Below are positions 5,716-44,629 of a DNA stretch of 64,000 bases, piece by piece; the stretch's first letter is position 1, and every line of letters starts with the position of its first letter. A program made the position numbers and the translations under genes. Under the pieces are notes generated by a model. It did not search any database. It saw nothing but the letters and a program-made list of their open reading frames with translations, and was not told where the DNA came from. This DNA is from Obrimoposthia wandeli (taxonomy: Eukaryota): contig CDROCS010003925.1 of assembly GCA_977020255.1 (NCBI GenBank), positions 124,001 through 188,000 on the forward strand. Direction: 5' to 3'.

Positions 5716-6984
5716 GTCATCAAACCAGAAATACAATAAAAATATCAATAAAAGAAATTGGTAAAATAATGATGTTATTGATAATATATTTTATAATAAA
5801 ATATAACCTACTGAAAGTAAACGCAACAAACATAAATGACAATCAATCAATCATACAACAACAAACAAATAAATTCGACTCAACAACTCATCTCATAAAA
5901 AATTTTGGATTAATAACAATAATACCTGAAATCACATCAATAAAGTTAAAAATTTCTCTTCTTACAAACAAAACAGGAAATGTGCAAATCACACAAACAG
6001 ATAGAAAACAAAATATAATTATTTCAGAAATAAAATCACAAAAATATACAATACCATTTTTAAGAACAGAAACACAATATAAAATAAGAATTAAGTCGAA
6101 ATTAAAAAATATAACACTCTATGAAAGAATTATAGAAACTCACATATACCTAGCATCAATATTAAAAACAACAGCAAAATATATATCAAAACATAAAATA
6201 ATGATAAAATGGGAATTTCAACTAAAAATAGATGACTTAGATAAAGCCCTCATTAGAATTAGATATAGAGGATATAATGATCATTTTTGGAAAGACACAG
6301 AAAAACAATTAGAAAAAACACAAATCAGAACAAATTTAACCATAGAAAATATAAGATATCCAGAGAAAATAATAATGAACAATAGAGAATGCGTAATTAC
6401 TAATAAACCAATAATGTACAGACAATGGAGTCAAAAGTTTGAAAGTTATAAAAATTTAACAAAATTAACAATTTTAGGAAATAAGATATCCAAACTATAT
6501 CAACCTATAATTTTTTTGTGGTCGTTGGTCAACGGTAAAAATTAAGAAATATGTGAAAGATTTAACCACAAAACAATTGCTACATACCACAACATTTACA
6601 TCAAAAATTTACAGAATTACAAATCAAGTTGAAATTACGGAAAAAATAAGAATTAAATTAAAATTAAAAACAACAGAAATAATATCCTATAAATCATTTA
6701 ATGAAAGTTTAAAAATGCACTATAGTAAACAAGAACATTCAAGGAATGAAAATAAAGAAGAACTTATAATAATAGTTATAGTAATCGAAATAATTACATT
6801 TATAAATCAAATATCATGGAAAATGTTAATTTTGAAACATACAAAAACGATAGAAACAAAACAACGAAAACACTTTTGTGGGCCCCCAGGCCCTTTTACT
6901 GTTTATATTATTCCTAAGGATGATAATTCTTCAGAATTATCCATAAATACTGTAATAGAAAATAGAAAAAGAAATATAACATAA
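5655..6984 (+). CDS. Accessory type-I membrane protein with FN3-like repeats (frameshift at ~6515)
   Basis: Internal signal-like stretch MMLLIIYFIIKYNLLKVNA; FN3-like motifs YTIPFLRTETQYKIRIKS, IMIKWEF..IRIRYRG...WK, CGRWS; hydrophobic ELIIIVIVIEIITFI near the C-terminus. Confidence 0.55.
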
Positions 6985-7180
6985 TAATCAATTTTTTTTG
7001 AATAAAACCGTTTAAGTAACAAAAATGTTAGTACTATTAAGTAAATCTAAATTAATTAGGAAATAGAATGAAAATTTGATATATATATATTTTTAAAGAC
7101 GATTTAATGAAGTAATATTAAAATAAAATCACCAGGAAACGCATCCTGAAATTTAATAATGGTTATTTTTAGATATAAAA

Positions 7181-7576
7181 ATGAACAGATTGGCAAAAAC
7201 TTGTAAAAAATGCAAAAAATTAGAGAAAAAGATTCGAGATGTTTCCAGACAGCATGACGACTACTATATAAAGATCACAACTCAAAATGAATCACTGAAA
7301 CAGTTAATAAAACAAAGTGTGAAAGAAAAATTGAATAATGATTTAACAATTGACGAACTAGAAGGGAGATTGGCACATAGTTTTGGCAGAATAGACAATT
7401 TAATACAACAAACTTTAAGTCAACGATCAACTATAGCCTCATTAAGAAGACAAATGATGACCTATAGCGACATGATAAACTTTTATTTGACCATTAATCC
7501 TACTATCCCAACTAATACAACACTTGATGATGGATATGACTCGGATATAAACATTGGTGAACAAAATTCTGGTTAA
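7181..7576 (+). CDS. Retroelement accessory coiled-coil protein, unknown function
   Basis: Intact 131-aa ORF starting with CxxC (CKKC) and showing heptad-like periodicity; lies between INT and the LTR. Confidence 0.5.
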   Translation: MNRLAKTCKKCKKLEKKIRDVSRQHDDYYIKITTQNESLKQLIKQSVKEKLNNDLTIDELEGRLAHSFGRIDNLIQQTLSQRSTIASLRRQMMTYSDMINFYLTINPTIPTNTTLDDGYDSDINIGEQNSG

Positions 7577-7881: not shown

Positions 7882-8911
7882 ATGCGTCAGTTTAGCAGTG
7901 CATACTTTAGAAACAACGGAGGAAGAAAAATGTTTTCAAATCAAACATTTCTTCCTAATAAGTTAAAATTACCACAGAAGAAAGAACTAGCGCACTTATT
8001 TTTACCAATGAAAAGAGACCAACCCATATGGCTCTCAGTGAAATATTCCCCAACATTAATTGTGAAAAAATAGATATTCACGTGGCACTAGGAGTAGCTC
8101 ATCTAAAAACCAAATCAGATAAGACATTAAATTTTCTGATGATAGGAAATCACACCTACACCTTACAAGCAGCTCAATTAGAAAATCAATATAGCATAAA
8201 AATAGGAAGAGGACCAAATCTATTATTTATAGAAAACATAAGAAGAGCAGAAGAACCTCAACAAATAACCCTTTTTGAATTAAAAACGCACAGAAACCAG
8301 CAATTTTATTCCTCGATTGCGAAATGGTGATATCAGTAGATAAACAGCCAGTTTTAGCAAGTGTGTCTATTATAAACTACATAGGTAACGTAATTATAGA
8401 TACACTGTGCGTAACTAGAGACAGAGTAAGAAATTACGTTACTAGAATAACTGGACTGTCGGATAGAAAGTTACAAGGATGTAGAGATGCTGATGAAGTA
8501 ATCGAGGAAGTAAAAAACATTGTGTATGGTAACATCATAGTAGGTGTGGGACTAACAAACGATTTAAAAGCTTTACGCCTACAGAAATGGATGTTATTCA
8601 ACATTGTTGATTTAGGAATATCCAAAAGCATAAAATCAGAACTAAATCACAATCACCCAAATATTGGACTCGCCAACATGGTGCGGAAATACTTAAATAT
8701 AGAAACACAAAAAGGAGTCCACACTAGCATGGAAGATGCAAATCACACCCGAAAAATTTTCATGATGAAGGAGGAAATGTTGATTAGAGAGTTTGATTTG
8801 ACCGAGGTGATGAATCCACCATCTTGCGAGAACAACCCCAGTTCATCGTTATCACATATGACCGGAAACTCGGAGTCCGGTACACAAAACTCCCCGATTT
8901 TGTTGGATTAA
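7882..8911 (+). CDS. Accessory protein with C-terminal REX4/ISG20-like DEDDh 3'-5' exonuclease (frameshifted; exonuclease at 8279-8911)
   Basis: Frame of ORF 8324 extends upstream to ILFLDCEMV; then LASVSII, YVTRITG, IIVGVGLTNDLKAL, HTSMEDA, giving the complete DEDDh set. Confidence 0.8.
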
Positions 8912-9988: not shown

Positions 9989-10064
9989 GAAATTCAATTT
10001 AAAGGACTGATTTTGTGAATTGGATCACACTATTTTAATTTGATTAAAAACCATAATATTTAGA

Positions 10065-10442
10065 TAACGGAAATTGATTATTACAACTACATATTATTGC
10101 CTGAAAACCTAACGGAAATTGATTATTACAACTACATATTATTGCCTGAAAACCTAACGGAAATTGATTATTACAACTACATATTATTGCCTGAAAACCT
10201 AACGGAAATTGATTATTACAACTACATATTATTGCCTGAAAACCTAACGGAAATTGATTATTACAACTACATATTATTGCCTGAAAACCTAACGGAAATT
10301 GATTATTACAACTACATATTATTGCCTGAAAACCTAACGGAAATTGATTATTACAACTACATATTATTGCCTGAAAACCTAACGGAAATTGATTATTACA
10401 ACTACATATTATTGCCTGAAAACCTAACGGAAATTGATTATT
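10065..10442. repeat. 45-bp tandem array, 8 full identical units plus a partial unit
   Basis: TAACGGAAATTGATTATTACAACTACATATTATTGCCTGAAAACC repeated at 45-nt period with no spacers. Confidence 0.97.
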
Positions 10443-10841
10443 GTTTGTTACCTGAATAAAAATTACTTCTTCATCTACTCGTTTATTAACACATATACAT
10501 AATCAGGAATGTAAAATCCCAAAATATTTTTCAATTGATCAATATCAGTTATTGTTAAAATTTCGATGAGATATTTATTCTGCACTTTTGATATTTTCAC
10601 AGGATTCATAACTCGTACAATTTGATGCCTCTTTAATATATTACATAGTTTTCATTTTGAAATTCTTTCTGAATAATAAAAATTTGCTACATATCTCTTA
10701 TTCATTCTAAAATAAGGAAACTGATTAAAAACAATGTTTATAAAAAAAATACATATAAGATACAAATAAGATACAAATAAAATTGATTATTAAATGAAAG
10801 AAACATAGTAAAACCGATTACAATTTATTACACGCAAAAAG

Positions 10842-11318
10842 TTAAAACATAGAAATATGAGCACGTTCAATTTTCCACATAGTCAACTTTGTTCCCATTT
10901 CATCTTTCTTGTAACCATAAAGTCGAATTGTTAGAGTCCATTGCTTCTTTTTCGGAAATGCATCAATATCAATATATCTTCCATAGTCATCTAGAAATGC
11001 TTCATCGGCTCCTTGGATATAAAATTCGTTCTTATTAAAAGTAAAATTTGGAACTGCCTTTTCTATTTTCTGTTTAAGATATTGAAAATCAGGTTTTTGA
11101 ATACCTGATAGATAGTAGCTGAACTTTCTTCTTTCAATTGTCACAGGATTTACTAAAGCAATCAGTTGAGCCTTCTTCAAGAATCTGACTTTGTATTTGA
11201 AATATTGTTTCACTTCTTCATACATATCCTTATCCGATTCTTCAAACATTTCTTCGTCATCGCTTAATACCCGTTGGCTATCATCCATTGTTGATAATTG
11301 TCTTTGATATGAATGCAT
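10842..11318 (-). CDS. Polinton protein of unknown function (possible OB-fold ssDNA-binding protein)
   Basis: Intact ORF with TATAAA at 11355-11350 upstream; homologous coding remnant at ~44640-44836; beta-rich C-terminus WTLTIRLYGYKKDEMGTKLTMWKIERAHI. Confidence 0.6.
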   Translation of the reverse strand: MHSYQRQLSTMDDSQRVLSDDEEMFEESDKDMYEEVKQYFKYKVRFLKKAQLIALVNPVTIERRKFSYYLSGIQKPDFQYLKQKIEKAVPNFTFNKNEFYIQGADEAFLDDYGRYIDIDAFPKKKQWTLTIRLYGYKKDEMGTKLTMWKIERAHISMF

Positions 11319-11535
11319 TTACTGTGATTTGTCCTCCAATGGTGCATTCTTTTATACTAATTTCTAACAAAGACATGAATCTCATTGGTTAATATAACTA
11401 AGCATTGAATTTTATTGGACTAAATATATCATCCAATTATAATAGGTTTGCAAGATAATTACAAGAAACGTGCAATAAAAAAGCAGGTTCAGACATATAT
11501 TAAAAAAAGATTTTACAGAATACAATTTCAGTCTA

Positions 11536-12043
11536 ATGAAACTCGTAAATATAAATTATAAAGGTAGAACAGAAGATGATGTTTCGTACTTACCATTCAA
11601 TGAATGGAAGTCGAGACAATATGTAGAAAAGTTTGACAATTTCACAGTTGTTATTTTTCCTACAGGTTAGTTTTTATTTTATTTTCATATTGAATTCTTT
11701 AGGAAATTGTCGTGTTATGGGATGCAAAATACCAATGCTTGGGTTCAATTTACCATTTGGAATTCAAATCACTGCAATACAATCAATCACGATTTCGGCT
11801 AATCTCGGGAAACAGATAAATCTTTTTAAAACTGCAGAGAAAATGAAAGAAGAATGCATGTTTGAACCAGAAATTTTTCCTGCTCTCAGTTATTTGAAGT
11901 TTAAACCGCTATGTGTAAATATATTTTCCAGTGGTAAAGTTATGATATTGAGATTGAAAAATTTTGATTATCCAGACATAGTTGATTTTAGAAAATATAT
12001 CTTATTACATCTTGTTATCTTTTCTATAAACAAACCCGTTTAA
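11536..12043 (+). CDS. TATA-binding-protein-like protein, join(11536..11665,11703..12043)
   Basis: Removing a 37-nt GT..AG intron gives TVVIFPTGNCRVMGCK (repeat 1) and IQSITISANLGKQINL..FEPEIFPALSYLKFKPLCVNIFSSGKVMIL (repeat 2). TBP has TALIFSSGKMVCTGAK and [34 protein letters not shown]. Confidence 0.8.
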
Positions 12044-12057
12044 ACTTATTGTTTTGA

Positions 12058-12330
12058 ATGAATAATACTATAAATAGAGACAATGAAGTGGATCGGCTTG
12101 CCGATGAAATATTTTCTGGAAAAATTAGGGGTAAAGAAATTTTATCAGAATTAAAAAATAATGATATAACAAGAGATAACATTGAAATATTGGTTAGATC
12201 ACACGTTATTCGAGAATTTAGAAATCGTACACAAATAAATAAAATTATAGCCAAATATTCATTAATTAATTTTTGTATTTCATCTACAATAGCTCTAACA
12301 TTGTACATTTCAATAAGGAAACTTCTATGA
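12058..12330 (+). CDS. Small protein with C-terminal hydrophobic anchor
   Basis: Intact 90-aa ORF, helical and charged, ending YSLINFCISSTIALTLYISIRKLL; TATAAACAA lies 33 nt upstream. Confidence 0.55.
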   Translation: MNNTINRDNEVDRLADEIFSGKIRGKEILSELKNNDITRDNIEILVRSHVIREFRNRTQINKIIAKYSLINFCISSTIALTLYISIRKLL

Positions 12331-12367
12331 TAATATAAACAATATTAAAAATGAAAGAGTATATGCA

Positions 12368-13015
12368 ATGGAGCTAAATAATAATGCTGTATTTCAAATA
12401 GTTGGCCCAAGTGGAAGTGGAAAGACACATTTCGTCTGTAAATTGTTGCAAAATGAATCTCTTTTCAAATCTAGTTTCAAAAATATTTATTGGCATCATG
12501 GTGGAGGAGGGGAAAGAGGGTTAACCAAAACAGAAGTTTGCAAGTTGAAGGGTATAAAATTTATTGAAGGATTTGATGCAAATTGGTGTGAAAGATTGAA
12601 AAAAGAAGATGTAATAATAATTGATGATTTGTATGAGGAGGCTAACAAGGAATCGGACTTTAATCATTTATTTACAAAGATTGCAAGACATCGTGAAGTT
12701 ACAGTTATATTTATCACTCAAAATCTGTTTCGCCAAGGAGGTCACCATAGAACAAGAAATCTTAATGTACATTACTTAGTTTTATTTAAAAATCCTAGAG
12801 ATCAAACAGTTGTTGATTTTGTGGCCAGACAGGCATTTCCTCAAAATAAGAACTTTCTAGTTGATTCATTCCACGATGCTGCTGAACAAGCACATGGTTA
12901 TATATTTATTGACTTTACGCAAGCTTGCCCAGATGGTATACGTGTTTTAACAGACATATTTAATTCTAAGGGAGTAACTGTTTATAAACATATAGAGAAC
13001 AATTATAAAAAATAA
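12368..13015 (+). CDS. A32/FtsK-like genome packaging ATPase
   Basis: Walker A GPSGSGKT, Walker B IIIDD, ARHREVTVIFITQNLF, RTRNLNVHYLVLFKNPRD. Confidence 0.95.
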   Translation: MELNNNAVFQIVGPSGSGKTHFVCKLLQNESLFKSSFKNIYWHHGGGGERGLTKTEVCKLKGIKFIEGFDANWCERLKKEDVIIIDDLYEEANKESDFNHLFTKIARHREVTVIFITQNLFRQGGHHRTRNLNVHYLVLFKNPRDQTVVDFVARQAFPQNKNFLVDSFHDAAEQAHGYIFIDFTQACPDGIRVLTDIFNSKGVTVYKHIENNYKK

Positions 13016-13194
13016 ATTCGCAATGCCTTTTCCAAAGTTGATAGTAAAACGTAAAGTAAAATCTAAGAAATCAAAAAAAAAGAATCATTAAGAAAAAAGA
13101 AGGGAAAATATTAATCAAATCTGTAGTTAGAAATAAAAAAAACTTAAATGGCTTCGAATATAAACAATATTTAAATTAAACCTTTTTTATTAAA

Positions 13195-13524
13195 ATGAAG
13201 AAAATACAAAGAAGCATACCCTATTTTAAAGCTTTAGTCAAAGCCTCTTCTAATAAGAGAATGATTATTCTTAAAGCATTTCCATCCTTTGTTGTAGATG
13301 ATTTATTGGAAGTTTTGTATAATATAGTTTTGGGTCGAGTAAAAGTTGGAAATCGGAAAAATATATTATATAAATATAGAAAAACTCTTCTAGATATTGC
13401 TAATGTAAAAAGTAAAAAAAGGAAAAGAAATATTATTCTTAAACAGAATGGTGGTTTCATAGGGGCTGTTATTCCAGTTGTTGCTTCAATTATCAGTAGT
13501 ATTATAGCTGCGACACGTTCATAA
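13195..13524 (+). CDS. Small basic virion core protein with adenain-type cleavage site
   Basis: Lys-rich; ends KQNGGFIGAVIPVVASIISSIIAA, the QxGGF + amphipathic tail seen in small Polinton proteins. Confidence 0.7.
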   Translation: MKKIQRSIPYFKALVKASSNKRMIILKAFPSFVVDDLLEVLYNIVLGRVKVGNRKNILYKYRKTLLDIANVKSKKRKRNIILKQNGGFIGAVIPVVASIISSIIAATRS

Positions 13525-13617
13525 ACAATTATTTATAAAATCGGCCAGACAGGCAAGATATGGGTGCTAGCCCTTCTTTACCTAAACTTAAATTTTCTTT
13601 CTATTCAAATTGTTGTA

Positions 13618-14630
13618 ATGGAGAAGATATGATTCAATCCAAAAGATCCAATTGGCTACACAGGAGTCTCAAAATTAGCAAAAAGAACAAAACAAAAATA
13701 CAAGAAAACGCAGAAATGGCTGAGCAACCAGTTAGCCTACAGTCTGAACAAACCGATGAGAAGAAGGTTTCCAACTAGAGCTTACAAAACCAGCGGTCCT
13801 AATAATTTATGGAAATGGATTTGATGGAGATGATCCCATATTCTTCCATTAATAAGGGATATCGATACATTTTAACATGTATTGATGTATTTAGCAGGTT
13901 TGCTTGTGCATTTCCAGTTAAAGCAAAGTCTTCAATAGCTATGCTTGAAGCCATTAAAGAAATATTAAAAGAGGACATTCCACAAAATATGCAAACTGAT
14001 TTAGGAAAAGAATTTTATAATAAGCAAGTTCAATCATTATTTAAACAAAATAATATAAATCATTACTCTGTGTTTTCACAATACAAAGCAGCAGTAGTAG
14101 AAAGATTTAATCGTACTCTAAGAGATCGAATAAAAAAGTATTTCACAAAAGAAGGAAATAAAAAATGGATCCAAGTTATACCTAAAATAATACATGCATA
14201 TAATCACTCTGAACATAGAGGTCTCAAGGGAATGAGACCTGTTGATGTTACTAATAAAAACTCTATGGACATTTGGATGAACAGGAAAAAAAAGAAAAAA
14301 TTAAAAAAGCTAAATATAAGAAAAACGAATATGTTCGAATTTCGAAAAATAGCTCTACTCCATTTATTAAAAACTTTGATCAGAATTGGAGCGATGAAAT
14401 ATTTTGTATAAGTAAAATTGATAAAAAGAGTAATCCAATAATGTATACTATTAAAGATGCTGACAATAATATCGTTCACGGTAAATTTTACGAGCAAGAA
14501 CTACAAGTAATATCAAATGAAGTAGTATTCAAAAAATATTAAAATCTAAGGGTACAGGTAAAAATAAACAATACTTTGTTAAATGGCATGGTTATTCAGA
14601 CCCAACTAGGATATCAGCATCTAATATAAT
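13618..14630 (+). pseudogene. Polinton retroviral-like integrase with C-terminal chromodomain-like region (stop and frameshifts)
   Basis: FNPKDPIGYTG..., MDLMEM, YILTCIDVFSRF, QTDLGKEFYN, KAAVVERFNRTLR, YNHSEH, GKFYEQEL, YFVKWHGY. Confidence 0.92.
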
Positions 14631-15581
14631 ATGAATTCTATGTATATGGTTTTACCAAGTAACGGATGTCCGAAGACTCAACCAGATAATGACGCTAGTA
14701 GCTTTATTATCGATTGGGAAAATCCTATAAATCTCCAAGGAGAATGGGAAGCGGCTTTAACAGAATTTTCTTTTTATTATTCTCCAATTACTATCAAAAA
14801 AAACTCACATATCTCGTTTACAAAAGAAGTTGATAATGAAATAACAACTGAAGTTGTGATCGGGTTTGATAGTAAAGGACAATTCTATTACAATTGTATA
14901 GATAAAGAAGTGAAAGTAATATTTGAAAATAACCAAGTCAGATTTAAAAATCGATTAAAATTTCTTCAAGTTATTAAAATTAATTTTGAATCTAAAAAAG
15001 AAGCTCTTCAATTCAGTTTTGATAGTGAACAAACAGTAGCTCGTAATAAACGGGATATTGTCTCATCTAAATCGGTTAGAAATGTTCCTGGTAGAGTAGC
15101 AAAAGTGTTGTTACTTGAAACGAGACCAAAGACTGTAGTGGAACTGAAAACGTTTTCAAATGATTATAAAATAGATAGTGAAGTGAATTTCTGTAAATTA
15201 ATACAGAAGGAATGTAGTGAATATTTGGATAAATTTGAAACATTAAATGGTAAATTAACGTTTACAGTAAATAGCAATATAAAACAAGTTTCATTTGATG
15301 ATAAACTCGCTAAAAACCTTGGTTTAAACAGAAATACCTTTGAAACTCATACAATAAAAACCATAAAAGCTAAAAATAAGGCAAAACTTTTAAATGCTGT
15401 TAATCATTTATATATTTATACTAATTTAATAGAACCAACGCTTGTAGGAGGACAGCGAGTTCCACTTTTGAGAACAATATGGATATCTAAAAATGAAACT
15501 AGATATGGGGACGCTGTCGGTATGTGTATAGATCAACCAATTGTATCTTCTAGTTTCTCTCTTTTCTATAAACAATATTAA
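14631..15581 (+). CDS. Minor capsid protein (penton); C-terminus frameshifted and continuing to ~15660
   Basis: MVLPSN...N..SSF...PINLQGEWEAALTEF at the N-terminus; LYIYTNLIEPTLVGGQRVPLLRTI near the C-terminus. Confidence 0.88.
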   Translation: MNSMYMVLPSNGCPKTQPDNDASSFIIDWENPINLQGEWEAALTEFSFYYSPITIKKNSHISFTKEVDNEITTEVVIGFDSKGQFYYNCIDKEVKVIFENNQVRFKNRLKFLQVIKINFESKKEALQFSFDSEQTVARNKRDIVSSKSVRNVPGRVAKVLLLETRPKTVVELKTFSNDYKIDSEVNFCKLIQKECSEYLDKFETLNGKLTFTVNSNIKQVSFDDKLAKNLGLNRNTFETHTIKTIKAKNKAKLLNAVNHLYIYTNLIEPTLVGGQRVPLLRTIWISKNETRYGDAVGMCIDQPIVSSSFSLFYKQY

Positions 15582-15667
15582 AGTAAATATTAGAGATGAT
15601 TCCGGACAACTAATAGATTTCACGTACGGGGCCAAGACAAGTTTAACAATACATTTAAGAAAACAAA

Positions 15668-16045
15668 ATGGCGAATCCAGCAATAATTGAAGCTTATAGT
15701 CAAAGCCAACAAGGTGGAGAAGTACCATATTTTGTTGGTAAACAATACAGATCTGGCTGGCTTAGAACATTAGGTAGATTTGCCTTTCCTCTTTTAAAGA
15801 GACTCGGGCGATTTATATCAAAATTAGGAAAGGATTACCTTTCATCTAAGGACAACAAACTAATACCAACTTTTAAGAAGCATGCGCTTGATGAACTTGA
15901 TAATGTTTTACCTGAAGTTGCTAATTTGATTAGAAAACGTAAATCAAATAAAAGTCAAGGAGGTAGTGGATTTAAAAGTAAAAAGAAGCTAAAAATTAAT
16001 ATAAACAAACGTAAGAATGTTGAAGGAACAATATTTGCAAAATGA
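15668..16045 (+). CDS. Conserved Polinton basic/amphipathic virion protein
   Basis: QQGGEVPYFVGKQYRSGWLRTLGRFAFPLLKRLG, the Q.G.G / F.G..Q.G.G + amphipathic helix pattern; SQGGSG followed by a basic tail. Confidence 0.7.
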   Translation: MANPAIIEAYSQSQQGGEVPYFVGKQYRSGWLRTLGRFAFPLLKRLGRFISKLGKDYLSSKDNKLIPTFKKHALDELDNVLPEVANLIRKRKSNKSQGGSGFKSKKKLKININKRKNVEGTIFAK

Positions 16046-17270
16046 GTTGCGCCAAAACTGAATTGTGTATTTTTGATAAACCGCTTCCACAAGTAGTTGT
16101 AGATAATGCTTCCTTTGAAGAAATATTCCTAGTTAACTCAGTTTCAGGAACCACTTTAACCGATTTAGAATTTAATATTAATGGTTCCAATAGCGAGTAT
16201 TTAGATTTGAATGATACTTTGCTTTATGTTCAAATAAAAGTATTAAATCTGATGGTACTAATTTAGATGAAAATGCCGATGTAACACCTGTAAATTATCC
16301 CTTTAATTCTTTATTTAATGATGCCATTGTTACTCTTAATAATGTCAAAATTGAAGGTGGAAATTCTTCCTATGCTCATAAAGCTTTGATTGAAAGTCTT
16401 TTGAATTATAGTACTGATACTCAAAATACCAATTTGGCAACCATTGGTTACGATAAAACGGTCGCAACTCGCAAAGAATGGATTGCAGGTTCTAAAGCTT
16501 ACGAAATGTGTGGGTCTTTGAGATTGAATTTCTTTTAACAACAGAAATATTTAATTCCCGGTGTTAATGTACATCTTCGTTTGAAATGTAATAAATGGAA
16601 TTTTTCTTTGATAAGCACGGACATTCTAAAACCTAGACTTCATATTTTGGATGCAAAATTGTATGTTCGAAGAGTTAAAACCTAGCAATCAGTTTTAATG
16701 GCACATAATATAGGAATGGAAAAAAACAATGCTTGTTATCCTATTAGAGAAACTAAACTTATATCTTATTCTTTAGGTACGGGTACACAAGCCTTTAATA
16801 AGGATCAAATTTTTGGTGATGTAAGATTACCGAAATTCATTTTAATTTCTTTTCAAAAAACTGCAAAGTTTCTAGGAAATTATACGACAGATGCAACTCA
16901 ATTTGACAATCTTAGTGTAGGTTCAGTGACACTTTCAAGAAATACTGATTATCGCGAAACATATAAAACATATTTCGAAGGTGACGCTTATGCTTTGGCT
17001 TATACGCAATCTATTATTCGGAATTTGGGCCAACTAGATAAAAATATAAACAATGGTATTTCTTTTACTGACTTTAAAAACAGCTGCCCGTTCTTCACAT
17101 TTGTTTTGGCACCAGACTTTGATATAAACCAATGCCAACTACCAAAGGATGGAAATTTACGACTAGAAATTAAGTTCAATGCAGCTTTAACAAATCCTAC
17201 TACGGTGCTTATTTACAGAGTATTTGATTCGGAAATACAAATCAATAAAAACAGAACTGTCATATTATAG
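16042..17270 (+). pseudogene. Major capsid protein (double jelly-roll, hexon-like), disrupted
   Basis: KTELCIFDKPLPQ, LEFNINGSNSEYLDLNDTLLYVQIK, KYLIPGVNVHLRL, RLPKFILI, GNLRLEIKFNAALTNPTTVLIY; frameshifts and an in-frame TAA at ~16537. Confidence 0.9.
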
Positions 17271-17271
17271 A

Positions 17272-17651
17272 ATGGAGTAAGACATATTTTAAATTTTTAT
17301 TTATTAATTTTTATTTAGTTCAAAACAAGTAAAAGAATCAGCAGAGAAGGTCTTGGGTGATAAATTTAATGGAGTTTATCCTATTGATATGATTCCATTT
17401 TTCAATCTGGAGGTTACATTATCAATACTCATACTTCGAATTTACCAGGAGAACATTGGATAGCTATTTATGTTAGAGAGTGGACAATACATGTATTTGA
17501 TCCACTTGCAATGTATTATCCACACAAACTTGTTTCAACTATTCAAAAAGGACGAAGAAGAGTATTTTACAACAAGATACAATATCAGGATCCTGCGACG
17601 AGAAACTGTGGACATTTATGTATTTTATGGTTATCGTTGCAAAACAATTAG
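17272..17651 (+). pseudogene. Adenain-like cysteine protease with 42-nt intron (17277-17318) and one frameshift (~17400)
   Basis: Spliced start MDSKQV..FNGVYPID; then YIINTHTSNLPGEHWIAIY, VFDP, YQDPATRNCGHLC (His-Asp-Cys triad plus Gln). Confidence 0.85.
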
Positions 17652-17916
17652 TGTGTTATAAAAATAAAAATTTTAAATGTTTTATTTTGAATTATTTTTT
17701 AAATTTCTAAAAATATAAGGGTAAAATAATAAAAGACATAAGACAAATTTTTTTAATACATTTATTAATCACAACATCACAATGAGATATGTCAGCAAAG
17801 ATAAGGTCCATCCTAAAAAATGTATTGAAATAACAAATAAGTTAAAGTCTAGGTGCCATAGGGATCTAAAATTTTAAAAAATTAAACTAAAAAAAATAAA
17901 ATAAAATGAAAACCGT

Positions 17917-20900
17917 TTAAATTCTGAAGTGTCCATAAGCCAGGCTAGCGTTATTTTCTACCCAAAAGCGCTTGTCGTCATTACTACTCAAAGCGATTTT
18001 GGTTGATTTATGGGAATACAGTTGATGGGCTCTTGAAATAAATCTAGTTTGCTCAACGCTTTCAATACACCCAGTATCATAAACTTTCCGATAGGCCTCA
18101 TGTGTAAGATTGTTTCTTCCCACACCCTTTGCTCTCATTGAACATGTATTATTAGATGCATGTAAACTGTAGCATTTAGGGCGTAGGAAAATACAATCAT
18201 CATACGAAACCTGTCCCTCGCTTTCATCCTTAAATTTCCCGATAATCTCCTTTAAACTCATAGAGTGTAGAGGATGGTTAGCGGGATATTTATGGGTATC
18301 TAGTAAGTTATCCCTAAACATTACTGGTAATAATTGATTATTTAAACTAACATTCCTACATTCTAAAAAGAAAGAGTCAGTGTCCCCTGCCGCGATTTTG
18401 ATCTCACAATTAAATTCTTGTCGGTATTTCTCCAATTCTATGTATTGAAGCTCATACATTCTGAGTTTAGAAATGTCTAAAACCGTTTGACCTATATAAC
18501 TCGGTCGATCGAGACAAATACTCTGTTTTCCTAATAACACTGCTACCAAGTCATCTGCAATTGTAAAACTACGCTTGAAGTTGTACTTGCTAGTATATGT
18601 TATTAGTTTACGCTCATCATTGCAAAACCGTAGACAAATACGTTTCCGCAAGTCCTCTACAGTTTTTCCAAAGAGACTATTACTTTTTAACTTGTAAAAA
18701 TCTCGATCGAATTTGCTAGTGGCCAAATTACGTTTTCTTGAATTCTTCTCAATAAAGTCTTTTAACACAAAGTTTTGACTGAAGCTTATAGCACGATGAA
18801 TTCGAGTAACTTTCGCTCCCAACTTTAAGTAGAATTGAAGAAACCGCCAATGCACAACATAATTCAACTTGTCTTCATGGGTTAACAATAATTTCTTAAC
18901 CTTTGAATTAGGTGGGCATTGATGAACAGGCGCTACTGGAAGATCATCTAATTTATCATGCACATTGGAATGGATTTTTATGACCACCTCAACCAAATAG
19001 CCGACGTCGGATGAAACTGTATCAACAGTAGCCAAATCTGTCATCAACTTATTCAACTCTTCCTCATCATCAACCCACTTAAAGTTGGCATGAGGTAGAG
19101 GTTGAGTAAGCGCCCACCCATACAAATTATTAATATCGATGTACAGAATCTCCGTGGATTGATTTTTGACAACATGATGTTTGTTGACAAAAGTCATTCC
19201 ACCGCGTATACCATAATCATATATTTGATACATCGCGGGATCTTGCAGTAACTCGATATTAATTTTAAGAGTTTTTATTGCTGTTGCCCATGAGAGACCA
19301 GGTAAACTAAAGAAATGCATTGGATCTAGCCCATCTTCTGCTAAAGACTTTACACGAAAGGACTCAAAAAGATCAGCTAAAAGATAAATGTCTAACTTCA
19401 TATAATAAAGCATATATTCTAAAAGATTTCGACAATTATTCGCCCAAAATGTACGGGCCTCATTATAGTCTTGAAAACTTACACCCTCAAATTCAGTTAT
19501 GGGTGGGATTTTCAGTTGTATTTTCTACTCTGAAGCCGGTAGGTGAATACTCTCATACAGGTTGTGCAATGCTAAAATTGACTCAAAATCTGCATACACC
19601 CTGAATTCCACGGGTATGCATTTTGCCAAATCCCTGAATTTTAAATCCTTATCCTTAGGCATGCTATATAGCGTATTGTCATCAGGATTCAGTGAACATA
19701 AATCCCCTTATCGTTAACCGAAGCTGGGAACACTGACTGTATAATTGGCCATGCATTTAAAGATGCCGTTAAATTTTTTAAAGAACCACTCAAAAACTGC
19801 AGAGAATCTATGAATCTTAAACTGCAGAATTCAGTATATGCAGTTAAAGATAAATATTTCTCTGAAGTTTGAGGTATACATGAAATTTCCCAAGAGCTTA
19901 ATGTACCCAACGCGTATTTAAGTATATGATGCAAATCATATCCTTTGAGGTTATGAAACACAATGGGAATTCGTGGTTTTTTAGGAAGACGACGGCCAAG
20001 GTTACAAAGGTTGCACGCCGCTCCCAAGTATCGCCCCGTAACATGATCGTGATCTCTGACTAACTTAGACTGGGTTCCACACAAATAACATAATCTTTAA
20101 GAATTAAAATTAACCCAGTCTATGCCTGTCATGATCATTGCTTGATGAGCATTGAGATCATACCACGGTTTGACAATTGTTGTTCCTAATTCCTCTAATT
20201 TTAACATAAAATCTAAAATACAATTTGGACCGGAAAATTTATGATACTGGGTAATATTGGGGCCTAAGAATAGTAGTTCTGCCGAAGCCGGTAGGTGAAT
20301 ACTCTCATACTGGTCGTGCAATGCTAAAATTGACTCAAAATCTGCATACACCCTGAATTCCATGGGTATGCATTTTGTCCAATCCCTGAATTTTAAATCA
20401 TTATCCTTAGGCATGCTATATAGCATATTGTCATCAGGATTCAGTGAACATAATGTCAGATGTTTGCTGTAAGAGATAAGTTTCCATTATTTAAATTTAG
20501 AAGATGATCTAAATTGGGAATTGCAGCATAATGGAATTTTTTATTATGTTCGAGCAAAATTAAGTTGACCTGAGTCCCCTCATTTTTGCTCCTATAAATT
20601 ACATCTACAAAAGGATTTTTAAAAATTTCTTCATCTGTTACATTAACTGGGATATCAGTATTATATTTGAATACATTAATACTCAAGTTATTAAGATGTT
20701 CAAATCTTGATATCGCAGTTAATTTAACAGGAAAAATTATTCCATGATACTGCAATTCATTTAAAAAAGGGGTATATTTACTGACACGCTCTCTATGCTC
20801 AGTAATTACTACCCTTTTGAGGATGGCCAACACGCTATACAGAAAGCAAAGGTTATCACTGTTTTGTACGTTAACAATGGAACGTGAAAGTTGAAGAGAT

Positions 20901-22518
20901 CTAGGTGAAGGAATGTATGAACTCCCCGAAAGATATATCATGTCAGTGAACTTTGTTAGAACAAAGCTAACATCGTGAATTCTAACTAGAGTCCATCCAC
21001 TACTTAACTCGCTATAATTAGCAATTTTTTCATCCAGGTTTCTTCCAATTTCAGTTACAAAATTATTATAAAAAACAGTTGCTTTATGTGAAATTACCCA
21101 AGTTTTAGTCTTCTCATTGACATTTTTAAACTGCACTGTTGCGCAAAATTGAACCTTAGCCTGTCCTAATTTAGTCACTTCTGATTTTAAAAGATTTTCA
21201 ATATTTGAATCTACACCTACGTTTAATAAAATTTCATTTCCTAATGGCACCTTAACTATAACATATTTATTATTTAGGTGATACTCTATAGTAGCACCGT
21301 TTTCTCTACGTTTTTTGGGTGGGACCTTATTAAGAAATTGGCCTCGCCTCTTTCTTCCGTTTGTCGCTGACAAACCTCCCCCTAATTGAATGGGAAGACA
21401 ACTATTTATATTAATAGTTGAGACAATCGCAGCTGAGGTTGAAGGTGCTGCTATTGGTGATGCTGCCGATGTTGAGGCAACCGTAGCTGATGTTGAAGGG
21501 GCTACTGTAGCAGGTGCTGCCGATGTTGATGAGACAGTGGCAGTTGTAGAGGCTGCATTTGAAGCTGACCTTGCCGATGAAGAAGCGGCTGTTGTAGAGG
21601 TTAGTGCTGCTGAAATAAATATATTAAAAAATAAATATATTTTTAAAAATTATTACCTCTAAGGCGTGCTAACATTGATGTAGGCACTCGCGATGGTGGA
21701 GGCATATCTGTTGTAGCAGATGACGATTGTATAACGGTATTTCCTGAATAAAAAAAATATATATATATATATATATAATAAAAAATAAAATATATAATTA
21801 CAATATTTTAAAAAAAAATCTGAAAAATAATAATAAAAAATACCTAATGATGGCAATCCAAGTTGAGCTGGAATGAAGTCCTCTTCATTGACGAAATCCA
21901 TCCAGCTGTCGTCCGTTGACTCGACGAAATCGGATTCCTCGATGATCTCCAACCAGCTGTTGTCGCTCCACTGAGGCTGCTCCATCTCGAAATCTGACTG
22001 GGTGATATTTCGCATCCAGTCATTGTTTGAGAATTGGGTTGCTGGTGCCAACTCCTCAAAATCTTCTTCGGAGATGTCGTTCATCCACTCATTGTTAGAC
22101 ATTTGAGTGGATGGGGCAGCAGCAGAATCAGGAGCCGGGAGAGAATGACCAATGGCAGGACCATAAACTGGTAGACTGACTTCCACTGGAATTGGAGGGG
22201 GAGCTGGAGCGGCCTGCGAATCGCGCACCAATTGGACGATATCCCTCTTCTTGTTGTTGGCCGTGAAATACGATAGGTGAGCTCGATGTTCACAGAAGAA
22301 TTCTCGAAACTCCTTCTCTTCCATTGTTCTTCAGAAGGGGCAGACGAAGAAGTGAACACCTTGAGACTTTGTCCAGTAGTATGCAGACATTGTCTCCATG
22401 CAGGACTCTCCTCCATGCGGAGCCGAAGCACCACAATACGCAGGGAATAGGTTACACGTAATCTGAAATAATAAATATTGATAAGGAAATAATAAATATA
22501 GAATCTTACCATAGGCAT
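17917..22518 (-). pseudogene. Protein-primed family B DNA polymerase with vOTU and EndoVII domains and a spliced N-terminal extension (introns 22509-22463, 21843-21744, 21656-21610)
   Basis: YIDINNLYGWA, KLKSNSLFGK, GDTDS, LRPKCY; ExoI ADFES, ExoII FHNLKGYD; EndoVII RDHDHVTGRYLGAACNLCN; vOTU NSDNLCFLYSV...HY. Upstream exons splice in frame through IQLGGG into ORF 20456..21373. Confidence 0.9.
19532..19701. repeat. 170-bp dispersed duplicate of 20284..20453 inside the pPolB gene
   Basis: Direct repeat with 7 mismatches by my count; it replaces the sequence expected after the KGIY motif. Confidence 0.9.
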
Positions 22519-22614
22519 TAATTCAAATTGTCGGGGATTTAAATGAAGAAAGTGTTTGCTTATATACTAAAATTTATGCACACATGCTCTTTTCCAATTG
22601 GATTAAAAAATTGA

Positions 22615-22850
22615 ATTTATTCCTCCAATGAGAAGGATTGTTTATCTGTTATTGGTTGAAAAAAATAATTTTATTCCTCCAATTAATGAGAAGGATTGTT
22701 TATCTATTATAGGTTGAAAAAATAATTTTATTCCTCCAATTAAAGAGAAGGATTGTTTATCTATTATTGGTTGAAAAAATAATTTTATTCCTCCAATCAA
22801 AAGGCTTATTTGTAAATAAATGTAAAATTTTAATAATGAATTCCTCCAAT
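22615..22850. promoter_or_regulatory. ~60-bp tandem repeats rich in CCAAT boxes upstream of pPolB
   Basis: TTATTCCTCCAAT..GAGAAGGATTGTTTATCT.TTA(TTG)GTTGAAAAA repeated 3-4 times; GTATATAAG (minus strand) at 22567-22559, 42 nt before the ATG. Confidence 0.6.
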
Positions 22851-22862
22851 TAGAAGAATTGT

Positions 22863-23351
22863 TTATCTACATGTCAAGTAATAATAAGAAAGACTTAAAC
22901 ATTTTTTATATGCGCAATGGTCACCATGATTACGATATGGACAGCAAATATTTTGTGGAATTTTTAATAGATGATCACGTGAAATATTTAAAGTATTCAA
23001 CCTCAATTTAGGAAAATATTTTTTTAAAGTTATATATTTTTTGCCATCCATTTCATCTAAAACATAAAAAATTCCATTTTCAATATCAAAATTAGATTTA
23101 ATAGTATCGAAAATACATATTTCACAAAAAGCCTTATGTCCTTCTTTCCATTTTAATAAATGGAAATATTTACTTAGATATAAATTAGTAAATTTTTTCT
23201 TATAATCTAAACTTTTAAATGGGATATCTATATGAAATATGAAATGCAAAGGATGAAAAACGACGCATACATCCATAATACATAATTCTTTTATAATATA
23301 ATCCCCATTTTTGTTAATGAAAGCCTCAAAATCTATGATATATTCCTGCAT
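22863..23351 (-). CDS. DEDD-fold / Maelstrom-like nuclease domain protein
   Basis: IIDFEAF...IIKELC, HFIF..P, YFHLLKWKEG, GKK..L, CPYRNHGDHCA: an acidic ExoI-like motif plus Glu-Cys-His-Cys residues; ORF intact. Confidence 0.6.
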   Translation of the reverse strand: MQEYIIDFEAFINKNGDYIIKELCIMDVCVVFHPLHFIFHIDIPFKSLDYKKKFTNLYLSKYFHLLKWKEGHKAFCEICIFDTIKSNFDIENGIFYVLDEMDGKKYITLKKYFPKLRLNTLNISRDHLLKIPQNICCPYRNHGDHCAYKKCLSLSYYYLTCR

Positions 23352-23459
23352 AATTACCCAAATTTGTAGCAAATCCCGTTGTTTATAACGAAAAACTATT
23401 AATCAAAAATTTATTAAAATGACGAGGTAGTATTTAGACAATTTTATATTTAGACAATT

Positions 23460-23819
23460 TTATAACATAATGAATAAACACAAAGTAATCAATAAAATTA
23501 ATTTATTTGTGGAAGGACCCTCTTCCAGTTTAATCTGGAGGATTCGCTTTCTTGCTGCTCGCCGAACATCCTCCGTCTCTTCTCTTCTTTTTTCCTCCAC
23601 CTTCTTTTTTTCCATTTCGATTTTCTTGTTCCACTCCACGACCCGACGTCGTTCTGCTAGCCGCCTGTCCTGAATCTCCACCCGACGATTCCACTCGGTC
23701 GCGACAGCAGTATACAAATTCTGGTTGAGGATCCTCTTTCGTAAGTCTCCTTTCTTCTCATTTATTCGTATGTTTGCTTCGATCTTCGTCACCAAACTTT
23801 GCAATTTAATAAATTCCAA
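23460..23819 (-). CDS. Small charged coiled-coil protein, unknown function
   Basis: Open frame with E/K/R-rich helix; TATATATA and a CCAAT box directly upstream; begins at TTG. Confidence 0.45.
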   Translation of the reverse strand: MEFIKLQSLVTKIEANIRINEKKGDLRKRILNQNLYTAVATEWNRRVEIQDRRLAERRRVVEWNKKIEMEKKKVEEKRREETEDVRRAARKRILQIKLEEGPSTNKLILLITLCLFIML

Positions 23820-24012
23820 TTTTTAATTATGAAGATGTTAATAAATTTGAACCTATATATATAAATTTAAGATATTTTTAATCCAATCACAAGCAAGTAA
23901 AATATATTTATCAAATGAAAGTTTAATAAATATATAACTAATCATTGCATTTATATTTAATCCTAAAAATTTTTAATTATTCCTTAACAATCTAATCACA
24001 TTTGAATAAGTT

Positions 24013-24145
24013 AACTTTATTTTTAATCTTGTTATTTTAATAAACTTAAGGAGGATATTTTAATATTACTAAATTCTAAACTTTATTTTTAATCTTGTTA
24101 TTTTAATAAACTTAAGGAGGATATTTTAATATTACTAAATTCTAA
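24013..24145. repeat. 66-bp tandem duplication (2 copies)
   Basis: AACTTTATTTTTAATCTTG...AAATTCTA at 24013 and at 24079. Confidence 0.9.
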
Positions 24146-24177
24146 AATAAATAATAATAAAAAGACAACACAAGAAA

Positions 24178-26034
24178 CTAATTTTTGTAAATTATATTTT
24201 TGAACATTTTTACGAAGTCATCATTGGGATCATCCGGGTCGTAATCCCTCCGACTAAGTATAATTGGAGAAAGCGGTACTGGTTCCTTCTCCTTTGGCCG
24301 GCCCAGTTTCTTTTTCGGCTTCACCGGTTGCTGTACAGCAATTGTCCTTCCCTCAGGTTTTGGCAATAGTTGCCGCAACTTTTTGGGAGGAGGTGCAGCC
24401 GATGTTGATGGCCCCGCCTTCCTCTTCCGCGGAGCTTTCTTCTGTTTCTCCTCCTTCTCACGCTGAAGCTGACGTGAGACGGCATCCTGTTGCCCACGCG
24501 AATCTGGAAGCATTGCCGGTGAATCCAGTTCCGCCAGGAATTCGTCCAAACCAGTGTCATCCCAGGCCCTCTTCAAGTTCTGGCTGGTTGTTGGACGAGG
24601 AGAAGCAGTCTCATGCAGACGTAGTTGACTCGAGAGCGGACTTATCTCGATCGGCGAGACTGGGATCCTCTCGTATAAAATTGGACCGTCGTCCACTGGA
24701 GGAGGGAGAATCTCCTGCTGGCCAATCACCGCCTCAGAATAATGGCCAATTGAGGTGCGAATTTTTCTCGAGCGCCTCGTCTTCTTCACCTCTGCCCGCT
24801 TTGTCCTTTTCTTAGGGAAAGGAGTAACTTCTCCCCAAGTTTCCTCAATTATCCGGACAGGTTCCTGCAAATGAAAACAAAAATAAAATTTCAAATACAT
24901 TTTATTTAATTAAAAAAATATTTAAAATACCAAAAAATTACCTCAATAATATTATACGGAAGTTTTTCCTGCCGCTCAATCGTTACTTCACTCGAATTGA
25001 GCAGACAGGATTTCGCCTTTCTAAGACGCCGTGTCTTCTGTACAGCAGCCTGCCTCGTTCGCTTCTGCGGGAAAGGAGAAATTTTGGCCCATGTCTCCTC
25101 AGTTAATATTATTGGTTCCTGCAACAAAAAAACATTAATAAAATTTAAACATATAGTCGGTAGGTATCTCTGATCACTCCTGGGATCATCCTGGCTACAT
25201 TGACTCGTCAAGTATTGCTGTTCAATTAGCCTCTCAATCGTGGTCACTGACGGTGCCAAATCTAGTTGCAGTTTCTGAAAATAAAATTAAAAAACATTTT
25301 AAATAAATGATTTCTAACCTGATTCGTCGCCTTTATTCTCCTAACAGGACGTATCGGAGATTGTGGCCTTCTGAATGGATCAGGCACTGTATTGTCGGGT
25401 ATCGGAGTCGGAGTTGTAGAGGGAGTGAGACCATCCCATTCGTCGGTGAACAGATGCCACTCATCTTCATCCATTTCTGCAACCATGGACTCGTTGGCTC
25501 CTGGGGCTCCGATACTTGGCTGTATCCATTCCTCCTCCCCATCCGACGGAACGTCATCAGTAAACAGCTCCTCGTCTGAGTCTGGTGCCAGTATTATCTC
25601 CGGTTGAGACAGTGGGATCAATTTCCAGGGGCATTTGATTGCCGCCTCAAAATTGTCAAAGATATTGGATCTCCTTGCTGCTACTGCTGAAGTTGCCGGA
25701 CGATTGGCTTCTGTGTTCAGCCTGGGAGTACAGTCTTCCCAATTCTCTATCGAATCCTGACTAGTCAGATCGATATATTGGGATCTCTGTACCCACCTCG
25801 CACGCTCATTGGTTCTTCTCTTGGAGTTGAGCTGACCAATGGCGGTTCTTCTAGCAACAGTTCGGCTCTTGCTGCTGCTTCTCCTTCGTCTCCTTCACTC
25901 ACCACCGACGAGTCTTGACTAAGTAAGTCAATGTACTGCGCCGGTGGTGGCGTTTGCTGCTGTACTGGAGAGAGATCTCCATACAGTTGAAACTCCGTCT
26001 CTTCGTCTAGGTCAACGTTGTTGTAGATTGGCAT
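24178..26034 (-). CDS. Multi-exon acidic/Pro-rich putative nuclear regulator (introns 25318-25275 and 24941-24865, probable degenerate intron ~25155-25120; frameshift ~25780)
   Basis: GC-rich exons separated by short AT-rich GT..AG introns that restore frame; duplicated exon EP...EETW...PFP.KRT; NLS-like PRKRK and PPPKKLR; AT-hook-like KKLGRPK. Confidence 0.65.
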
Positions 26035-26119
26035 TCTTGCTTCTTGATTAATGATATTTGATTTATGAAAAAATAATGAAAAGAGGTTTCCTTATATACA
26101 AAAATAATAGACTAACCCT

Positions 26120-26450
26120 CTTTTGTCGTCCAATGAGAGCGGGTTATTCAAATAATTTATTTGAAAATCAGTAGGCTTTTCTCAATTTTTTAACTATGTT
26201 TGAATGCTGGAATGTCATTGGATAAAACATATTTTATTCGAAAATATATAACTAATCTTTTGTCGTCCAATGAGAGCGGTTTATTCAAATAATTCATTTG
26301 AAAATCAGTAGGCTTTTCTCAATTTTTTAACTATGTTTGAATGCTGGAATGTCATTGGATAAAACATATTTTATTCGAAAATATAACTATTTTCTTAAGA
26401 TTTTGTTGCATAAGTTTAACGTCCAATGAAAACGTATTATTCAAAGAATT
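26120..26450. promoter_or_regulatory. 137-bp tandem duplication with CCAAT boxes upstream of the 26034 gene
   Basis: CTTTTGTCGTCCAATGAGAGCG at 26120 and 26257, partial third copy at ~26420; GTATATAAG (minus strand) at 26099-26091. Confidence 0.6.
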
Positions 26451-26559
26451 TATGGTATTTTCTTAAATTTTGTTGATGTTTGAATACATGTTTGTCTTTG
26501 GATTTAAAATAGTAATATTTTTTTGACTGTACATGTTTGGATGGTATAAAAAATTCATG

Positions 26560-26979
26560 AACTCATTTCAGGTCAAGTTAAGGTCATGACCTTATGAGGT
26601 CATCATCATGAGGTCAAGGTCATTTAAGGTCATCATGAGGTCAAGGGTACAAAGTTGTCTAGGTCATCATGAGGTCAAGATCATTTATGGTCATTTAAGG
26701 TCATGTATTTATTACTCGTTGATCCACCGCGGGCCCGGAGGGCACGCTTTGGCCAATTTTTTGGCCTCTCAGGACCTTAATCAAAATTTTGGGAGCATTA
26801 TGAGATTTTTAAATTTAAAAGGTGTTATATGGAGTTAATTATTTTTTTGAGTGTTTGGGAGGGGGGGTAGAAATTTTTTCTACACACCTATACGAAATTT
26901 CACTCCACACACATGCACGGTTTTAAAGGACAGTAGGGGGGGAGGGGTGTGGATTAGACCGGACACATCCACCTACTAC
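26560..26979. repeat. Polinton right terminal (TIR-type) region
   Basis: Degenerate AGGTCA/GGTCAT repeats at 26568-26703, G-rich tract, terminus ...CCTACTAC; a homologous segment recurs at ~45660-45730. Confidence 0.65.
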
Positions 26980-43800: not shown

Positions 43801-44629
43801 CGGTTGGGGCATTATACTATGATCTTAAATACTAGAGTACACACTTACTGATCTCCCAGCTCTCTCTGATTAAATTTCTCAATATTTATTTTAAATCATA
43901 ATATTTACTCTCGATCGCTGCTAACTCATCCTCATACTGTCTCGCTATCTCACCATTTCCCAATCTTTTTGTTAAATACATAAACCCCATCCATTTCTCT
44001 ACAAGTTCAATTCACATATCTTCGTACTTTTGTCTTAATTCATTAATCTCCGGATTCTCTAAACTAGCTAATACTTTATTTTGTAATCTCATGAAACCTG
44101 TTTTTTCAACACGTTTCTGTCGTATTCCCTGTTTTAAAATCTCCTCGTCCCTTAACCCACCCCTTAATCTCAATAACAATTGCACTACTAAACCATTTTT
44201 TACAACTACATTGCACATCGCTTGACATCCAATAATCTTCTGTTAAACATAACATAAAATTTAGTTTCGTCTATCTTCTATAGTTTTTTGTGTTCGCTCT
44301 CCTAATGGACAATTATCCTTTACTTTTAGCTCTTCTTCTCATCCCTTCCAATCAAATGTTCTTACTTTAGCTAAATCCATATTGTATTTGCTATCAGTGG
44401 GAAATTTCATCTGCATCAACTGGATTTTTTTATAAACTTCGGCCAAACTCTGTTCGTAGCCCTTTCCACAACACGAACCCAGAACAACTGCTTATTAATT
44501 TTTTTTTACATATATCAAAGACAGTTTTGCCTTTTACAGTTATTCATTCTCACAAACAACACTCTTTAGTCACCTTTCTTCCCGCTCCAAAATGTTGTCA
44601 GAAAAGCAGAAATACAAAAGATAGTTCGA

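Follow-up and report, generated by a model that had tools for sequence, protein, structure and literature searches.

Why a Polinton should encode a protein resembling the TATA-binding protein (TBP), and what such a protein would do for the element, is the question raised by a locus in Obrimoposthia wandeli. It lies in the 64,000-nt stretch of DNA analysed here (the window: assembly GCA_977020255.1, contig CDROCS010003925.1, positions 124,001-188,000 of the forward strand), and all coordinates below are relative to that stretch. We consider it probable that this Polinton-borne protein, a TBP fold stripped of two helices, is a late-promoter factor, predicted to bind the sequence TATAAAC and to recruit host TFIIB and RNA polymerase II (Pol II).

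The gene runs on the forward strand from an ATG at 11536 to a stop at 12043 and comprises 156 codons. Exon 1 (11536..11665) encodes the bulk of the helix-less N-terminal repeat, and exon 2 (11703..12043) the end of that repeat together with the full C-terminal repeat and its E-P-E stirrup. The initial annotation proposed a spliced protein with both TBP repeats, and this reading stands: both motifs that it quoted are present and exon 2 matches the Pfam TBP family. It also described a shortened region between the repeats; the shortening is real, but it is more than a short linker, consisting of two deletions of about 11 and about 13 amino acids within the N-terminal repeat.

The 37 nt between the exons (11666..11702, forward strand) are predicted to be a GT-AG intron of phase 1, with its GT at 11666 and its AG ending at 11702, interrupting the Gly codon of IFPTG. 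Three indirect lines of evidence support this prediction. First, the intronless relatives P0001-P0003 are uninterrupted across the window's exon junction. Second, indels relative to the window occur within the intron in 65 of 70 sibling copies and within codons 1-135 in 9 of the 70; GT..AG is retained in 67 of these 70 aligned copies, at intron lengths from 33 to 41 nt. The siblings (75 loci tried, 70 aligned) were picked as top matches, and the set is therefore biased to intact copies. Third, a GT-AG intron interrupts the same codon in metagenome locus L045, about 53% identical to P0003; it is 40 nt long and differs in sequence from that of the window. Since the one host TBP gene that was read is uninterrupted at this codon and has its introns at other positions, the intron was probably gained in the element, and its GT-AG form suggests that the element is transcribed in the nucleus by Pol II. 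Contigs of four sequencing runs, all from one sample, look like DNA because one of them crosses the host TBP introns unspliced; among the best 15 of their 220 matches, none joins the two exons across 11666-11702. Two non-synonymous changes, at codons 26 and 127, are private to the window copy of the gene, and its 3' tail does not keep the register of most siblings; this copy is decayed and probably functional no longer.

The element around the gene is a family A Polinton copy (10492..26977) whose left end is missing from 10492 and whose right terminal inverted repeat (TIR; 26882..26977) ends in CTACT. A sibling, C346, has both ends, with a 6-bp target-site duplication (TSD) and TIRs with AG..CT ends, whereas the window copy has the right TIR only. 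The TBP-like gene had been said to head the plus-strand gene block; it does start that block, but this is not the end of the element, as sibling family A copies reach about 0.7 kb further left, to the TIR. On the reverse strand, ORF158 (10842..11318) likely encodes a Polinton ssDNA-binding protein: its model (pLDDT 86) has weak fold matches, the best being Enc34 SSB, T7 gp2.5 and ASFV CP312R (E 0.03-0.14, TM about 0.45), a canonical TATA box lies upstream, and the ORF is present in 14 of 60 metagenome loci.

The forward-strand block continues with ORF90 (12058-12330), an A32-like packaging ATPase (12368..13015; Pox_A32, E 1.9e-5), a PZ-like ORF (13195-13524) and an rve integrase split in three frames (13633..14542), which is a 342-aa ORF in two siblings. 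A putative minor capsid protein (14631..15581), a PW-like ORF (15668-16045), a putative, broken major capsid protein (16042..17270; a 406-aa ORF in family C) and an adenain-like protease fragment (17388..17651; Peptidase_C5, E 0.016, below the cut-off) follow. The PZ-like and PW-like names are inferred from position, and the capsid proteins are assigned by size and position, with no capsid family match on the window ORFs. On the reverse strand lie a broken protein-primed DNA polymerase B (pPolB; 17917..21649), assigned by similarity to family C (38-56% identity to the 1210-aa ORFs of this PF03175-positive family), and the conserved ORF162 (22863..23351), which often adjoins the TBP-like gene in relatives. 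ORF162 has no Pfam match; the provisional name EXO was given to it after a motif. The element thus has the pPolB, rve integrase, A32 ATPase and adenain protease of a Polinton, the protease at a sub-cut-off score and the polymerase through family C. The window copy is decayed and left-truncated, with integrase, capsid and polymerase split.

Several further features accompany this element. The C346 copy (L091-L093; both TIRs, TSD) lacks the equivalent of window 15504-20576 (capsid, protease and part of pPolB) and is a deletion derivative that retains the TBP-like gene. At 44610-45463 lies, in inverted orientation, part of the left arm of a related Polinton (about 73% identity). Remains of a Gypsy-type retrotransposon (RT, integrase) occupy 144-7576 and include a Monjiviricetes fusion-glycoprotein ORF (PF24664, E 2e-41); an RNase T-type exonuclease ORF lies at 8324-8911, and a 45-nt tandem repeat at about 10065-10442 is directly left of the Polinton break. 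An Rfam scan of 10000-28000 gave 0 matches.

Does the gene encode a TBP fold? Exon 2 matches Pfam TBP (PF00352) at E 5.9e-11 and 42.5 bits (curated cut-off 22.9), and the 35 PDB sequences that it matches at E<=1 are all TBP or TBP-containing fusions. The intronless relative P0003, 54% identical to exon 2, matches PF00352 in two stretches at 50.4 bits. Its AlphaFold model (pLDDT 95.9) has no helix before residue 86 and overlays TBP (VIA Z 13.6, rmsd 2.7, 151 residues; best non-TBP row Z 6.3), and the Foldseek matches listed for it at E < 0.001 are TBP chains. The fold proposed by the initial annotation is therefore predicted by Pfam and by the AlphaFold overlay alike, and the TBP-like gene is confirmed to encode a TBP-fold protein insofar as the model of P0003, rather than of the window protein, represents it. 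The deletions in the N-terminal repeat remove helices H1 and H2, neither of which is found in the P0003 model. The helix-less form falls within a 28-row subclade of the TBP-like family; deeper branches (P0179, P0209-P0228 and others) keep both helices of the N-terminal repeat and have the polar saddle in common with it.

The DNA-facing side of this fold is altered in a consistent manner. Counted over 153 family rows in yeast TBP numbering (aligned to Table 1 of PMC12529657), V122 is replaced by R in 97%, T124 by M in 99%, L205 by N in 99%, N159 by S/T in 99% and V161 by T/S in 98%, and less uniformly V71 by N in 74% and V203 by C in 81%. The saddle pairs of canonical TBP, N69/N159 and T124/T215, are not intact, since N159 has become S/T and T124 has become M. 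Phenylalanines F116, F190 and F207 are retained in 97-100% of these rows and F99 is lost, with no Phe among the four commonest residues at that position. N69 and P191 are also retained, as is the acidic C-terminal stirrup (E186 in 91%, E188 in 98% of the 153 rows). At the I194 position the wider family has Arg in 79%, and all 70 of 70 family A copies have Ser. Such near-invariant polar replacements point to a changed target rather than to decay. I194, V203 and L205 are the specificity positions of the altered-specificity mutant TBPm3, which discriminates against C in the downstream half of the box (PMC1636458).

A profile search limited to proteins of 61-275 aa gave 1710 candidates, among which 340 proteins belong to the TBP-like family (median length 150 aa in the 119 aligned). 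At 60 metagenome loci, 42 have a neighbour matching the window element and 25 a core-gene neighbour; among the 20 loci of at least 3 kb, the figures are 18 and 15. Most of these relatives have an open frame without an intron (55 of 60 are single-hit and free of stops). In the O. wandeli genome, all 150 scored matches are 88-100% identical to the TBP-like gene (the search gave 38,394 first-look candidates, which is not a copy number), and three Polinton families carry the gene, the two besides family A without an intron. The survey of other Polintons that had been suggested as a check thus places the gene in sibling and distant Polintons alike. Scans of viral contigs with the TBP-like alignments and with the ATPase alignment gave no confirmed locus. 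O. wandeli harbours at least four Polinton families, often nested or adjacent (e.g. C242/C1435/C919/C2685/C1961), and most of the 30-40 kb stretches fetched contained pieces of more than one Polinton.

Of the 66 rows in a quick tree, 54 belong to the family and fall into a single clade (SH-aLRT 100), from which four host TBP/TRF-like rows are separate. This tree has few cellular rows, is without an identified NCLDV or TRF2 row and leaves out the host C968 gene; its separate clade excludes a recent host capture, and the tree does not name the donor. Purifying selection is indicated by a median omega of 0.20 over 39 non-independent pairs from 41 ORFs. Among sibling copies, pN/pS over codons 1-135 drops from 0.75 in singletons to 0.05 in variants shared by at least 10 copies (Fisher p 0.006), the latter class consisting of 1 non-synonymous and 5 synonymous variants. 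By these sequence comparisons the family is confirmed as Polinton-borne and kept by purifying selection. The host has its own TBP genes, of which two lie head to head, two are intronless and divergent TBP-like genes and one is an intron-bearing paralogue (L081-L086; C238, C60, C1092, C968). It also has several Brf-like genes, and its TFIIB was found as exon pieces. An element-borne TFIIB was not found among the 12 PF00382 matches in 29 candidates, the 8 loci read resembling host TFIIB/Brf exons.

The suggestion that such a factor would direct the element's late genes gains a cis-element from the upstream regions, where YATAAAC precedes structural and packaging genes and not the TBP-like gene. 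In an unbiased 7-mer count over 17 element sequences, ATAAACA ranks first and TATAAAC third. YATAAAC stands 14-60 nt before 45 of 50 start codons of ATPase, PZ-like, capsid and ORF162 genes, mostly beginning 32-42 nt before the ATG, and before 0 of 46 starts of TBP-like genes; the 50 late regions belong to elements that are related to one another and were chosen by way of the TBP gene. In the window, TATAAAC is found on the forward strand at 12025..12031 (33 nt before ORF90), 12334..12340 (34 nt before the ATPase), 13159..13165 (36 nt before the PZ-like ORF), 15567..15573 (101 nt before the PW-like ORF) and 16000..16006 (42 nt before the major capsid start), and on the reverse strand at 23387 (36 nt upstream of ORF162); CATAAAC lies at 13520..13526 on the forward strand, 40 nt before an ORF at 13560. 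The site about 100 nt before the PW-like start, inside the upstream coding sequence, is conserved (window 15567; L039, L045, L049, L054). The region 5' of the TBP-like gene (11492..11512, forward strand) has a canonical TATA box in most siblings, changed in the window copy, and the strict form TATAWAWR occurs in only 20 of 46 upstream regions of TBP-like genes.

YATAAAC[AG] is 2.3-3.3-fold enriched over shuffles in five TBP-bearing elements and at about 1 or below in four TBP-less stretches, and it precedes 16 of 59 ORFs in the former and 0 of 33 in the latter. The TBP-less control, four stretches of a PF21738-capsid Polinton lineage of the same genome (family D) in which no TBP-like gene was detected, is a single distant and degraded lineage, so that motif and gene may simply be co-inherited; a fifth region (C2193, with a capsid fragment only) was left out. 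The PF03175-positive family C was rejected as a TBP-less control, as it bears the TBP-like gene. In family D (e.g. the C1961 and C2441 regions) ORF starts are preceded by a stretch resembling TTTTAAAAA, and TATAAA[AT] is over-represented, possibly another promoter code.

How might protein and motif work together? Host TBP would transcribe the TBP-like gene early from a canonical TATA box, the transcript then being spliced, and would likewise transcribe the SSB-like ORF158 from its own canonical box. The C at position 7 of the late motif, which TBPm3 disfavours, would be disfavoured by host TBP and read instead by the polar saddle of the viral protein (V71N, V122R, T124M, N159S/T, V161T/S, V203C, L205N and no Phe at F99); in TBP, recognition of the 3' half of the box falls to the N-terminal repeat. 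TBP and TFIIB form a well-established complex that depends on DNA, and the acidic stirrup (E186/E188), still present, would dock host TFIIB and thereby bring Pol II to the late genes. Helices H1 and H2 of the N-terminal repeat carry the TFIIA, TAF1, Mot1 and Brf1 contacts, and their loss would remove these surfaces and free the protein from host control. We thus infer that the TBP-like protein binds TATAAAC and recruits Pol II. Two findings are counterpoints: family A has Ser instead of the family's usual Arg at I194, yet shares the same TATAAAC motif; and F99 is missing here, whereas the herpesvirus TBP mimic ORF24 requires all four phenylalanines. Moreover, there is a crystal structure of wild-type TBP with a C(-25) TATA variant (PDB 1qn3), so that host TBP may read TATAAAC weakly.

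That last point lends some weight to a different scenario, in which host TBP itself reads TATAAAC as a weak promoter and the viral protein acts elsewhere, sequestering host TFIIB or obstructing host TATA promoters as a decoy or competitor. The retained TFIIB stirrup, the ability of host TBP to bind the C(-25) variant (PDB 1qn3) and the canonical TATA boxes at the ORF158 and TBP-like genes would all suit a decoy. However, a decoy has no need of a near-invariant, re-specified DNA face, and it leaves aside that the motif's C, absent upstream of the TBP-like gene, is a fixed base ahead of late genes, and that the TBP-less lineage is without the motif. On balance we regard it as unlikely. It is also conceivable that the protein is a repressor or timing switch that binds TATAAAC or canonical TATA and silences early or host genes, as the absence of F99 and of the N-repeat helices may make DNA bending and co-activator contacts abnormal. 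We give this little credence, as the acidic stirrup is conserved at 91-98% and the motif sits at promoter distance ahead of genes whose products are needed in bulk.

The motif might, alternatively, have nothing to do with the TBP-like protein and be a host forkhead site or a 3'-processing signal of the upstream gene. ATAAACA matches what we take to be the forkhead consensus, and certain sites do lie within the end of the upstream ORF. Nevertheless, in the 50 late regions ATAAACA is strictly forward (42 forward, 0 reverse), GTAAACA is absent (0) and AATAAA occurs in just 4; a T precedes ATAAACA in 47 of 52 cases, and upstream of the ORF162 site the nearest ORF of at least 100 aa is about 0.8 kb away. 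Such an origin of the motif is thus very improbable. Finally, the view of the gene as a host TBP pseudogene, captured and now decaying as a passenger of the element, fits the private changes and shifted tail of the window copy, of which alone 'decayed' is true, but is refuted for the family, and hardly credible, given one deep clade apart from the host genes, an omega of about 0.2, host TBP introns at other positions and relatives that are mostly intronless open frames (55/60); the check by phylogeny and by occurrence in siblings thus speaks against a recent host pseudogene.

The late-promoter reading can be set against several known systems. The core of vertebrate Polintons/Mavericks (PMC8097293) likewise comprises pPolB, ATPase, integrase, capsid, protease, TIRs and a 6-bp TSD; intact vertebrate copies have intronless ORFs, and 'TATA' does not occur in that paper, whereas here a TBP-like gene has a GT-AG intron. 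A Polinton-related virus has already been credited, in passing, with a TBP-like gene: the legend to Fig. 5 of Starrett et al. 2021 (PMC8502044) has a TBP label on a MELD-virus map, which in the accessible text occurs once and without analysis. By title and abstract, the full-text literature (subscription journals being outside it) yielded no paper on a Polinton TBP or on the TATAAAC motif.

With cellular TBPs (PF00352), including the host TBP/TRF-like proteins, the Polinton protein has in common the saddle fold, F116/F190/F207, N69, P191 and E186/E188. It differs in its 20-24% identity (fold alignments), its deletion of H1/H2 and seven or eight re-specified DNA-facing positions; F99, H1/H2, the saddle pairs and the tree placement all depart from the canonical pattern, and the protein, though of TBP fold, is not a canonical TBP. 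The top BFVD fold matches, at 12-20% identity and E 6e-8 and up, are NCLDV TBP-like proteins. Most viruses of that group have RNA polymerase genes of their own; by Pfam, none was seen among the ORFs of the window element.

A parallel in layout comes from herpesviruses, whose TBP mimics (KSHV ORF24, EBV BcRF1, HCMV UL87; PMC12529657) are likewise viral TBP-fold proteins whose DNA face is polar. In KSHV ORF24 the positions V122, T124, V161 and L205 hold polar residues (PMC12529657, Table 1), and herpesvirus late genes are marked by a TATA variant, TATTWAA, while early genes have host-type promoters and host Pol II is used (PMC12529657); the layout proposed here is similar. ORF24, however, has 752 aa, its own Pol II-binding domain and a need for five other viral factors, and as described in PMC12529657 it keeps four Phe and is without the TFIIB acidic residues. 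The Polinton protein, by contrast, is not a member of this herpesvirus group: it has about 150 aa (in a family search limited to 61-275 aa), stands alone, is without F99 and keeps the stirrup, and its motif changes TATA position 7 where the herpesvirus TATT motif changes position 4. Convergence with the herpesvirus mimics is likely, because the fold match to BcRF1 is weak (E 8e-3).

We are evenly divided over the broader proposal that this Polinton clade runs a herpes-like early/late cascade, in which one 150-aa factor and TATAAAC would form an orthogonal TBP-promoter pair, evolved apart from the herpesvirus mimics, that works without any other viral initiation factor, uses host TFIIB and escapes TFIIA/TAF1/Mot1 by the loss of two helices. 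If so, the protein would be the eukaryotic counterpart of an 'alternative sigma factor' in minimal form, and would speak for a programmed virion-producing cycle in Polintons. With a single small protein and a 7-bp site, it becomes possible to test how Polintons control transcription and whether they have a true lytic programme. As a natural experiment, the family can also tell which TBP surfaces are not essential, and it may supply an orthogonal TBP-promoter pair. The strategy known from herpesviruses would then have arisen a second, independent time, by way of changes at matching positions of the saddle.
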